Assembly: GCA_964502785.1 (NCBI GenBank)
Contig: CAZCXW010000006.1
Span: 1-37,660, forward strand
From: an uncultured Methanosarcinales archaeon
Lineage (GTDB): Archaea > Nanobdellota > Nanobdellia > Woesearchaeales > GW2011-AR9
Direction: 5' to 3'
Length of the DNA stretch: 37,660 nucleotides
Shown here: piece after piece, positions 5,301-25,886 of the stretch
Numbering within the stretch: the first letter of the stretch is position 1
How the letters are laid out: every line of letters starts with the position of its first letter
Made by a program: the position numbers and the translations under genes
Notes under the pieces: model-generated
Told to the model about the DNA's origin: nothing
Database searches by the model: none
Seen by the model: the letters and a program-made list of their open reading frames with translations, nothing else

Positions 5301-5388
5301 TTGCCACCAGTTCACGAAGAAACTGCTGCTTCTTGTACGCTAGTGAAATTGCTGTTTCACTGTGTGTCTGACGGGTGATTTTTGATAT
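5301..5388 (+). repeat. intergenic structured repeat, second 88-nt copy
   Basis: See 2427..2514. It lies between convergent genes (GDT1 end at 5266, fur end at 5437). Confidence 0.75.
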
Positions 5389-12437: not shown

Positions 12438-12530
12438 TCACTTTTCGTCTTGGAAGTTATCTATTTAAGTTTTATGATGATAGACAGTTAACTTAAAGGC
12501 AGCCAGACTGAGGTATTATAAAGATTCATT

Positions 12531-12596
12531 TATACTAAAATGCGTTAGAATGTCAAAAATCACCCAGATATTTGATATCTAATGATTTTTAGTATA
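12531..12596 (-). repeat. mini-copy of the intergenic repeat with 10-bp terminal inverted repeats
   Basis: TATACTAAAA (12531-12540) and TTTTAGTATA (12587-12596) flank TGTCAAAAATCACCC. The reverse complement GGGTGATTTTTGACATTCTAACGCATTTTAGTATA matches 25846..25886. Confidence 0.6.
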
Positions 12597-12633
12597 CAAG
12601 CAACTTATAGTGAGAGCTTTTTCTATTTCTGTT

Positions 12634-16900: not shown

Positions 16901-17029
16901 GGGGAAAAGAAAATGAAGAAATTTATAAAGATTGTTGTTTGGGACGTGGGAAGTGAAATGATTAGTACTTGATGTACATACTCCCTCTATGTACAAAGGC
17001 AGATGCAAATAAATAGAAATCTACATTCA

Positions 17030-17290
17030 TTATCGACTTGTAAAGTATGAATCAACTATTTTCGCCAATTGAGAATCTTCAACTCGTAATGTTACTAACT
17101 TGCCACGTCCTGATACTTCAAAAGTAGAAAACCGGCTACAATCATCAAAACCAGAAGAACTTCCATCGTCAATAGTATTAACATTCATTCCGCGATACCC
17201 ATGAGTATGATATTTACCTTCTTCTATTAAATGTTCAACAAGTGCATCAAATTCTCCTCTAAGCAGTTGATATTCAACGATTCTTTTCAT
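17030..17290 (-). CDS. hypothetical small protein
   Basis: 86-aa ORF co-oriented with sppA. No recognisable motifs. Confidence 0.35.
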   Translation of the reverse strand: MKRIVEYQLLRGEFDALVEHLIEEGKYHTHGYRGMNVNTIDDGSSSGFDDCSRFSTFEVSGRGKLVTLRVEDSQLAKIVDSYFTSR

Positions 17291-17381
17291 ACAACTATTT
17301 TCGTGGTGATACTATTTTAACATTTATATCTTAAGAAATAGATAACAAGAAACAAGAGAGCGTCCGTTTATTTGGTTAGTA

Positions 17382-17605
17382 CTGTCAAAGAAAACCGTCC
17401 ACCACCGGTCAGAGACCTGGTGGCACAAAGAAATGTTCGCATTTCTTGTGCAAGAAATCAACAGATTTCTTTGCATGCTCGCTTTGCTCGGGGCGGTTTT
17501 CTGACTCACAAAAACATTGTTTTTGGATCCAAAAGCCAGAGCTTTTTGGCTCCCAGAATTTTCCAAGATGAAACCACCTGTCTAAGACTGGTGGAAAATT
17601 CTGTG
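17382..17605 (-). repeat. hairpin-cluster copy of the intergenic repeat family
   Basis: Shares in the same order with 2427..2567: CTGTCAAA, CCACC(G/C)GTCAGA, a CACAAAGAA..TTCTTGTG hairpin, CCCAGAATT and ACTGGTGGAA. Six hairpins were read by eye (17402-17423, 17424-17450, 17451-17473, 17529-17549, 17554-17603 enclosing 17574-17594). Confidence 0.65.
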
Positions 17606-17714
17606 ATTTTAATATTACAAACAGTGCTTAGAATGAATTATGTCTAATTTAGAAATCCCGAGATTGATAAAATAGAGATAGATACCATGTTCAATTTAAG
17701 AGCCCGAGTAATAT

Positions 17715-18104
17715 TTATGCACAACCTAAAAATAACACTATGTTCCCATTCTCATTTACATCAAACTGAGCCTTTCCACTAGTCTGGTCTTGTTCAGAGA
17801 AATAAGAATAAGTTACAGTCCAATATTTTATCCCCCTATATAATCTCTGGGAATTTACACTTTCAATTTGCCAATCAGTGCCCATATTCCATAAAGTAGA
17901 GTTTTTATTATCTTTCGACCAAGTTATAAACTCATTAGAAACTGCTAAAACATCTGTTTCATTTCCAACACTCATTTCAGAAGAAAATATTATTGGAACA
18001 TCAATGATGCATTCTTCTATCTCTGTAAATTCATTTTCTGTTTTACATCCACTGTTCATAAGTAAAAAGACTGCTAATCCCATAAAGATAAGTATCTTAT
18101 TCAT
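17715..18104 (-). CDS. putative lipoprotein/secreted protein
   Basis: Signal peptide with a lipobox-like LMNSGC. No other motifs. Confidence 0.5.
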   Translation of the reverse strand: MNKILIFMGLAVFLLMNSGCKTENEFTEIEECIIDVPIIFSSEMSVGNETDVLAVSNEFITWSKDNKNSTLWNMGTDWQIESVNSQRLYRGIKYWTVTYSYFSEQDQTSGKAQFDVNENGNIVLFLGCA

Positions 18105-18298
18105 ACTATCTGAGAATAAATGAGGGTCTTTTTAAGTATATTGAACACTTTTATTGAAATTGAAGCATTGAAGTTGAAGCGTTAAAGCGAGGGCTCCTGA
18201 ATTGAATATAACACTAATTAACTTCAATCATGTTCCATGCTCGTGAATAAGCAATTTTCAGCAACATTTTTATAATGTCGTTAAAATTCTGAAAAATA

Positions 18299-25689: not shown

Positions 25690-25781
25690 CGAGCCTGCCC
25701 GGATTCGAACCGGGGTTTGCGGGTGTCTTTAAGCTTAGCTTTCCGAAGCCCGCCGTCCTATCCAGGCTAGACTACAGGCCC
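25690..25781 (-). tRNA. tRNA-Arg (anticodon UCG) with an 18-nt intron at position 37/38
   Basis: Hand-folded cloverleaf. Acceptor stem GGGCCUG/CAGGCUC, D stem GUCU/GGAC, anticodon stem GCGGG/CCCGC with loop CUUCGG^A, and T arm CCCGG-UUCGAAU-CCGGG. Discriminator G and no encoded CCA. The intron is at 25725-25742 (AAAGCUAAGCUUAAAGAC). 74 nt plus 18 nt gives 92 nt. Confidence 0.85.
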
Positions 25782-25826: not shown

Positions 25827-25886
25827 TGTGTGATACTTGCTATTTGGACATTGATTTTTGACATTCTAGTGCATTTTAGTATATAT
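25827..25886 (+). repeat. partial copy of the intergenic repeat (3' tail plus TTCTAGTGCATTTTAGTATATA)
   Basis: TGTGTGATAC...CATTGATTTTTGACATTCTAGTGCATTTTAGTATATA matches the reverse complement of 12531..12567 and the tails of 5361..5388 and 1021..1043. Confidence 0.55.

Follow-up and report, generated by a model that had tools for sequence, protein, structure and literature searches.

The hairpin cluster at positions 17382-17605 of the window, by which we mean the whole 37,660-nt stretch of DNA analysed here, is best explained as a 223-nt non-autonomous element of the IS200/IS605 type (PATE- or MITE-like), with ends derived from a parent insertion sequence (IS) that encodes a divergent transposase hereafter called Y1-W; we put the probability of this reading at about 0.8. 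As such, the cluster counts as selfish repeat DNA rather than an RNA gene. Homologous ends, the lack of inverted termini and of target duplications and a seamless insertion are hallmarks of the single-strand 'peel and paste' transposition of IS200/IS605 elements, and we infer the transposition chemistry itself from the established mechanism of IS608 and ISDra2. With this explanation, two spurious ORFs and one candidate ncRNA are removed from the annotation, and several hairpin-rich intergenic repeats of the genome, including those at 2427-2567 and 5302-5385, are explained as a single transposon family.

Anatomy of the hairpin cluster

An earlier note had listed six hairpins lying in a 424-nt gap between two minus-strand genes. 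The gap is confirmed, as it is left by the minus-strand ORFs 17030-17290 and 17715-18104, and all the listed hairpins were located in the window sequence at 17382-17605, and the predicted fold of the cluster contains them as well. As plus-strand RNA, the cluster folds at -84.9 kcal/mol (z -5.56 against 200 dinucleotide shuffles); the minus-strand RNA gives z -4.67 against as many dinucleotide shuffles, and the minus-strand DNA of 17384-17611 reaches z -7.96 (200 shuffles). Since none of the 200 shuffles equalled the native energy in any of these three runs, the hairpin content of the cluster is far above chance and the six-hairpin cluster is borne out. Regarding known RNA families, Rfam returned nothing at the cluster at the gathering score, and only chance-level matches (E 0.87 and 3) over 17200-17800 when E values up to 10 were allowed. 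The sole Rfam match within the window is a 92-nt tRNA gene at 25690-25781 on the minus strand.

Two short ORFs lying on the element, which the note had regarded as spurious, have no Pfam match, and a 1-nt indel in a hairpin loop puts the N-terminal parts of both out of frame in the other two full copies. As their N-terminal halves stand in different frames across copies, these ORFs are not conserved, in support of that judgement. The two small proteins flanking the element have no Pfam match either. Besides the element, the surrounding 1.25-kb stretch (17009-18258) comprises two ORFs, one of 86 aa and a lipoprotein-like one of 129 aa, and exact-protein look-up found the 86-aa protein on no other contig. 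The entire stretch is missing from the same-genus genome G001, in which S49 peptidase and topoisomerase genes lie ~140 nt apart; with the stretch absent and its DNA only ~70% identical to that of the window's genome, G001 is uninformative as an empty site.

The limits of the element were placed at 17384-17606, at most 2 bases from the coordinates first proposed, at the points where the full copies on contigs C6 (the window), C9 and C20 part from their flanks (the C6 and C9 rows of the three-copy alignment were used), and a second basis for them is a related mini element, the nested and seamless insertion of which is described below. The element reads on the minus strand, with its left end (LE) at 17606 and its right end (RE) at 17384, and it is laid out as a LE hairpin TTTTCC-CCACCnGTC..GACnGGTGG followed by a RE module ..GCGAGCATGC..CCACC..GGTGG..TTGAC. 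Directly 5' of the LE, and outside the element, stands the target-like pentanucleotide TAAAA (17607..17611; TTTTA on the plus strand). The LE subterminal hairpin CCACCAGTC-TTA-GACAGGTGG (17574..17594), preceded by ATTTTCC, is surrounded in predicted folds by an extended stem CAGAATTTTCC / GGAAAATTCTG (17554..17603), at the position of which other subfamilies carry CTGCTTTTTCC / GGAAAAAGCAG, both versions being complementary. Two extra hairpins come next, namely CCAAAAGC-CAGA-GCTTTTTGG (17529..17549), absent from the C46/C39/C21/C43 types, and CAAAAAC-ATT-GTTTTTG (17507..17526); both are found only in the subfamily formed by the three full copies.

The RE module (17384..17505) is closed by an outer stem GTCAGAAAACCGCCCC / GGACGGTTTTCTTTGAC, which contains a conserved GAGCAAAGCGAGCATGC segment, two inserted hairpins and the RE hairpin, and it exists in 6 copies in the window's genome and 3 in genome G016 at ~76% identity. 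Its subterminal hairpin CCACCAGGTC-TCT-GACCGGTGG (17402..17423) corresponds to the CATG-CCACCnGT..ACnGGTGG found immediately 3' of Y1-W genes. CATGC is separated from the RE hairpin by an insert of ~50 nt (17424..17473) with two related hairpins, CACAAAGAAATG..CATTTCTTGTG and CAAGAAATC..GATTTCTTTG, and with CA on each side of its site; this insert is also carried by the 184-nt copies on C46, C39 and C21, and it is missing from every parent IS right end as well as from C43:2921-3068, a copy that is colinear in other respects. The element finishes with TTGAC (17384..17388; GTCAA on the plus strand), the predicted right-end cleavage motif, exactly after which copy-to-copy similarity ends. The LE and RE subterminal hairpins are alike, and the same pair flanks Y1-W genes.

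Copies, distribution and growth of the family

The genome to which the window belongs (G000; 1.32 Mb, 95 contigs, 94%-complete, the window being contig C6) contains, according to BLAST, two further near-full copies at 92-94% identity, C9:5976-6195 (94%) and C20:9554-9775 (93%). To judge by a CDC48 gene, the host is an archaeon, and its genome is that of an uncultured member of the Woesearchaeota (DPANN). On C46, C39 and C21, the first 123 nt of the element are joined to a different second half, and the C43 copy is devoid of the two inner hairpins. Family members starting with the head (T)GTCAAAGAAAAC form a size series of 28-53, 108-148, 184 and 223 nt, with TGTCAAAGAAAACAGACCACCAGTGAATACACTGGTGGAAAGAGCAGATTCTA as an example of the shortest form; they have in common the head, a CCACCnGT..ACnGGTGG hairpin and the tail, and are distinguished from one another by insertions or deletions of whole hairpins. 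A BLAST census with seven representatives gave at least 38 family loci in this genome, among them the window elements at about 2427-2567 (2425-2580 in the census) and 5302-5385, and all 38 are intergenic. Between gene pairs running in the same direction, ~11 elements lie along the gene direction and 10 against it, and this lack of orientation bias tells against the family being primarily one of promoters, terminators or RNA genes. A terminator or promoter module, for which the T-tracts and an adjacent TATA-like motif were considered, was accordingly rejected as primary nature, the orientation to genes being random. By eye, a C/D-box sRNA was dropped for want of a C box, and a CRISPR repeat because the copies are dispersed and not arrayed.

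Outside this genome, a pattern scan of species-representative genomes found the minimal form only in the Candidatus Woesearchaeota groundwater MAG JACPNA01, in at least 21 copies; genome G283, which belongs to a different genus than G000, is taken to be this MAG on account of identically matching loci. For the head 12-mer GTCAAAGAAAAC, the counts are 30 in G000, 47 in G283 and 0-8 in the 112 other genomes of the family (5-8 in seven of them and only 2 in the same-genus G001), with control level across 200 genomes of the order. Judged from these motif counts, the patchy occurrence with independent bursts fits mobile DNA and not a conserved RNA.

These observations bear directly on the proposal, made in the earlier note, of a distinct ncRNA gene. 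A family of small genes for structured RNAs, or of cis-regulatory RNAs, with hairpins acting at the RNA level, would agree with the strong RNA fold of both strands and with stem complementarity being kept between subfamilies. Yet three near-identical copies and further partial ones, always intergenic and in mixed orientation, leave the gene unsupported, and no conserved promoter or fixed orientation to neighbouring genes goes with the copies, which differ by the gain or loss of entire hairpins. With a patchy distribution among related genomes, both ends homologous to IS ends and no Rfam family even at E up to 10, an RNA-level function as the nature of the cluster is very improbable.

The cluster had also been proposed to be a rearranged relative of the repeat at 2427-2567, with the same order of sequence blocks, and this relationship is well supported. 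The block order is real: both elements start with (T)GTCAAA..ACC, end with ..ACTGGTGGAA and include a CACAAAGAA-type hairpin. The closing stem of the module is also, as described, collapsed in the cluster, where CCACC.GTC/GAC.GGTGG pairs as a simple hairpin and two others stand next to it; the corresponding stem encloses two hairpins in 2427-2567. Within the right-end hairpin loop of the 2427-2567 family sits a hairpin CACAAGAAGC..GCTTCTTTGTG, which is related to the extra hairpins of the cluster.

Of the suggestion that the cluster might be a longer or ancestral version of the repeat, the first part holds and the second does not. The window subfamily has four extra hairpins, two in the ~50-nt insert and two at the internal junction, and as the extra hairpins are absent from the minimal 28-53-nt members, from the 123-148-nt members and from the ends of the parent element, the cluster is a derived composite. 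In the gene-less copies, both end stems are lengthened as far as the termini. These lengthened stems and the four extra hairpins are secondary additions that left the ends undisturbed, and because each type of hairpin-bearing copy numbers at least three, the spread came after the hairpin gain. When reverse-complemented, the internal GGAAAAAGCAGG|GTCAGAAAACC agrees almost exactly with the RE-LE junction ..GGTTTTCTTTGAC|TCTGCTTTTTCC predicted for the excised circle, a resemblance in sequence that suggests fold-back or the formation of an inverted dimer via a palindromic hairpin. This junction is present in the long forms C46:7287-7486 and C43:2921-3068 of G000 and at 17505-17554 in the window. 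We also observed, in the parent IS, a hot spot of small hairpin insertions at the loop of the right-end hairpin (metagenome loci L086, L093, L097, L099 and L102), which is the same phenomenon as in the window element 2427-2567.

Element ends and the Y1-W insertion sequences

Y1-W is a divergent Y1 (HUH) transposase of 143-148 aa, which a family-wide Y1_Tnp search revealed as low-scoring Y1 genes near head motifs in related Woesearchaeales genomes. It also occurs in about 70 metagenome contigs, and a metagenome scan returned 80 Y1-W loci. In alignment with canonical IS200 TnpA, residues H63 and H65 (HUH), W108, Y125 and Q129 (Y..Q) are invariant. The protein scores 34-35 bits on Pfam Y1_Tnp (cut-off 23), stays below the NCBIfam IS200 cut-off and gives no match to NF047646, the NCBIfam model for REP-associated tyrosine transposases. 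Among solved structures, it comes closest to the TnpA proteins of ISDra2, IS608 and Sulfolobus; this match is strong if the profile includes a canonical member and weak (E 0.035) if Y1-W is searched by itself.

The sequence that follows the Y1-W stop codon, GCGAGCGACC-CGAGCCCGCAGGCGAGCATG-CCACCAGTG..CACTGGTGG-TGGTCGCTCGC-TTTGAC, runs colinearly with the first half of the element once this is reverse-complemented, the string then reading GTCAGAAAACCGCCCC-GAGCAAAGCGAGCATGC-[two inserted hairpins]-CCACCAGGTC..GACCGGTGG-TGGACGGTTTTCTTTGAC. With the repeat form of G283, blastn found 33/34 identities, colinear, to this 3' flank in G283, G024 and G007, and the same right end is present in most of the ~60 metagenome Y1-W loci with enough downstream sequence, the shared architecture being counted at ~70 metagenome loci. 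The right ends of the parent ISs mostly finish in TTGAC, with TTTTAC or TTGAT in diverged subgroups, and the G000-type string CCCCGAGCGAAGCGAGCATGC occurs exactly in metagenome loci L076 and L086 and with one substitution in L093. Across 20 diverged loci, double compensatory changes affect 8 of the 19 predicted pairs of the right-end structure, mostly in the outer stem.

On the other side of the gene, 35 of 53 metagenome loci show TTTCC with a CCACnGGT..ACCnGTGG hairpin at a distance of 134-243 nt before the Y1-W start codon, and a LE-type hairpin is likewise found upstream of Y1-W in the genome loci. The upstream hairpin is preceded by TAGAAGCTGAGC or TATAAT.., and the repeats of G000, on the same strand, begin TAGAA|TCTGCTTTTTCC-CCACCAGTG..; the two left ends thus compare as TAGAA|TCTGCTTTTTCC-hairpin in the gene-less repeats and TAGAA|GCTGAGCTTTCC-hairpin in the IS. 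From these matches at the right and the left, both ends of the repeat family are the ends of the Y1-W insertion sequence.

In the bacterial REPIN/RAYT systems, hairpin doublets are long-lived, inherited vertically, kept by a single-copy domesticated Y1 transposase and of service to the host, for example as terminators or in mRNA stability. Some traits of the present family conform to this: the long forms consist of two extended hairpins, the arms of which co-vary between subfamilies, T-tracts adjoin the hairpins, the copies are strictly extragenic and the transposase is of the same Y1 superfamily. However, Y1-W is multi-copy, with six matches and several paralogues in G283, and within the family it is restricted to 14 of the 114 genomes, G000 not being among them; it occurs in 16 of a phylum sample of 301 genomes, 15 of these being in the same order. 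Moreover, the protein is 79-92% identical across five genera in which housekeeping DNA is ~70% identical. Because of its multiple paralogues, its patchiness and this excess of identity, Y1-W behaves, as far as sequence comparison goes, as an active insertion sequence and not as a domesticated single-copy gene. With, in addition, no match of Y1-W to NF047646 and repeats that are nearly absent from the same-genus G001 and show no orientation bias to genes, a system of the REPIN/RAYT kind is improbable.

The parent IS encodes the Y1 gene only. In two places, L049 (G283:C5) 1-1000 and G283:C4:6480-7634, Y1-W genes stand in tandem with paralogues of ~50% identity, the next paralogue beginning ~60 nt past the right end of the first. 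PATEs of the IS200/IS605 family often encode omega RNAs (PMC10055086), and a multi-hairpin unit of ~220 nt that ends at the right boundary would suit a guide RNA serving a TnpB or IscB nuclease in trans. Against such a function, the TnpB zinc-ribbon domain PF07282, which was the domain covered for TnpB and IscB, was not found in a six-frame search of G000 when 8 of 14 control genomes were positive, and the parent IS itself has nothing to offer beyond Y1. We therefore give a guide-RNA element almost no weight.

Some observations speak against the non-autonomous element of the Y1-W type that we favour. In the 94%-complete G000 assembly, no homologue of Y1-W was found (best tblastn E 7.8). The absence of the cognate transposase bears on the present-day mobility of the element and not on its classification; incompleteness of the MAG and the poor assembly of repeats may, on our assumption, be the reason for the missing gene. 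G000 has two canonical IS200-type Y1 genes, C2:2473-2835 (-) and C21:20759-21064 (-), with 97 and 83 bits, the latter truncated at the contig end; both were rejected as cognate partners, as their flanks share no hairpin with the family. Across genomes, any Y1_Tnp gene is present in 8 of 9 repeat-rich genomes versus 35 of 105 others (Fisher p 0.0017), and Y1-W specifically in 3 of 9 versus 11 of 105, a weak and not significant difference (p 0.08).

Insertion, mobility and comparison with known systems

The termini of the element are not complementary to each other: the left one starts TCACAGAATTTTCC.. (TCTGCTTTTTCC.. in other subfamilies) and the right one finishes ..GGTTTTCTTTGAC. No target duplication was found beside 25 copies in G283 or 16 in G000. 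As the ends are unrelated and duplications absent, we rejected a MITE of the typical kind, which has inverted termini and is flanked by duplications. The left flank is TA[GAT]AA (TAGAA, TAAAA or TATAA) in each of the 16 copies that the LE pattern picked up in G000 and TCAAA or CAGAA in variant copies read by hand, and the transposase-bearing ISs have TAGAA or TATAA at this position. T-N-R-A-A, which summarizes G000 and most IS copies, is a loose motif inseparable from the first bases of the element.

A single event, the sole filled/empty pair in G000, displays a seamless insertion. An unrelated repeat of ~105 nt (CCCTTTTTGTGCAAGAATTTTCTGCTTCAAAGAAGAGAAGTTCACCACCAATC..) is intact on C33, C10 and C3 and interrupted on C9 and C15 by a 67-nt mini member of the family, which is devoid of both CCACC hairpins and sits, after TGAAA, exactly between ..TTTTGAAA and AACTC.., with no base duplicated or lost. 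This ~105-nt repeat has at least five copies (C9:7260-7440, C15:15085-15265, C33:9495-9675, C10:22805-22985 and C3:41460-41640). A second palindromic repeat family, also unrelated, occurs at 2303-2402, 12521-12606 and 25852-25886 of the window as well as genome-wide; its arms are TATACTAAAATGCGCTAGAATTCGAAC..GGCGCATTTTATATATA and TACTAAAAATCATTAGAAATCGAAC..TAATGATTTTTATATATA, with arm motifs present 28 and 23 times in the genome, and its ..TAGAA ends often abut the left end of the hairpin element.

By analogy with IS608 and ISDra2, a Y1 transposase dimer supplied in trans would recognize both hairpins on one single-stranded DNA strand, here the minus strand, and cut 5' of the left end and after TTGAC. 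A single-stranded circle would be excised and then pasted elsewhere, 3' of a target pentanucleotide. The T-rich hairpins of the minus strand may, as a by-product, halt or insulate transcription between the flanking genes.

One may also imagine the family as the first archaeal counterpart of a REPIN-like system; REPINs are, according to one report (10.1101/2021.07.10.451892), undetected in archaea. The family would persist without a resident transposase and grow by an undescribed process, with end stems extending exactly to the termini and small hairpins added stepwise, and a use by the host would be possible. Were this reading true, which we hold to be unlikely, the copies would be long structured DNA or RNA, which might serve the host, with its very compact genome, as bidirectional terminators or insulators.

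With the Y1-W-derived transposon family as the preferred reading, a previously uncharacterised clade of Y1-only insertion sequences, spread through Woesearchaeales, is defined with both of its ends. Clean ends (T-N-R-A-A | ... TTGAC) and a small transposase make the system easily testable in vitro. The nested growth of hairpins, the only oddity left in the finding, bears on how gene-less elements of the IS200 type evolve.

DPANN genomes are small and usually considered poor in mobile DNA, and our full-text literature search returned no description of the element in Woesearchaeota or other DPANN archaea. Among archaea in general, IS200/IS605 is reported to be the most widespread IS family (PMC13343696), and gene-less PATE derivatives moved in trans are documented in Haloquadratum and Geobacillus (PMC3119063, PMC10055086). 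In a survey of complete genomes, archaeal Y1 transposases were only of the canonical subclass 1.1 (PMC6006769).

With the bacterial REP/REPIN-RAYT systems, the family shares short extragenic palindromes in tens of copies, a link to Y1 transposases, hairpin doublets and co-varying arms. Unlike the RAYT genes, Y1-W is multi-copy, patchy, apparently horizontally mobile and without a match to the RAYT model. The elements have a left end distinct from the right one, unlike a REPIN, in which a single REP is present in two inverted copies. Pneumococcal BOX elements are modular, with variable internal hairpin-forming units between conserved end modules, as is the case here; BOX is not known to be related in sequence to the window family or to have a cognate transposase, whereas the present ends trace to an IS.

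Compared with IS200/IS605 elements, the family differs by the divergence of the Y1-W clade (motifs NHVH, WN and YLDQQ), by a right-end hairpin placed inside a second, covarying outer stem, by gene-less copies with both end stems extended to the termini and with nested small hairpins, and by its setting, a DPANN archaeon (G000) in which the cognate transposase was not found. The likeness is nonetheless extensive: as in IS200, IS608 and ISDra2, the parent has a gene for a Y1 HUH transposase in which the HUH and Y..Q motifs are kept, and its ends are non-inverted and carry similar subterminal hairpins on both sides; there is no target duplication, and insertion would be beside a short motif. As with PATEs and IS200-type MITEs, the gene-less copies retain only the ends and are more numerous than the autonomous ones.
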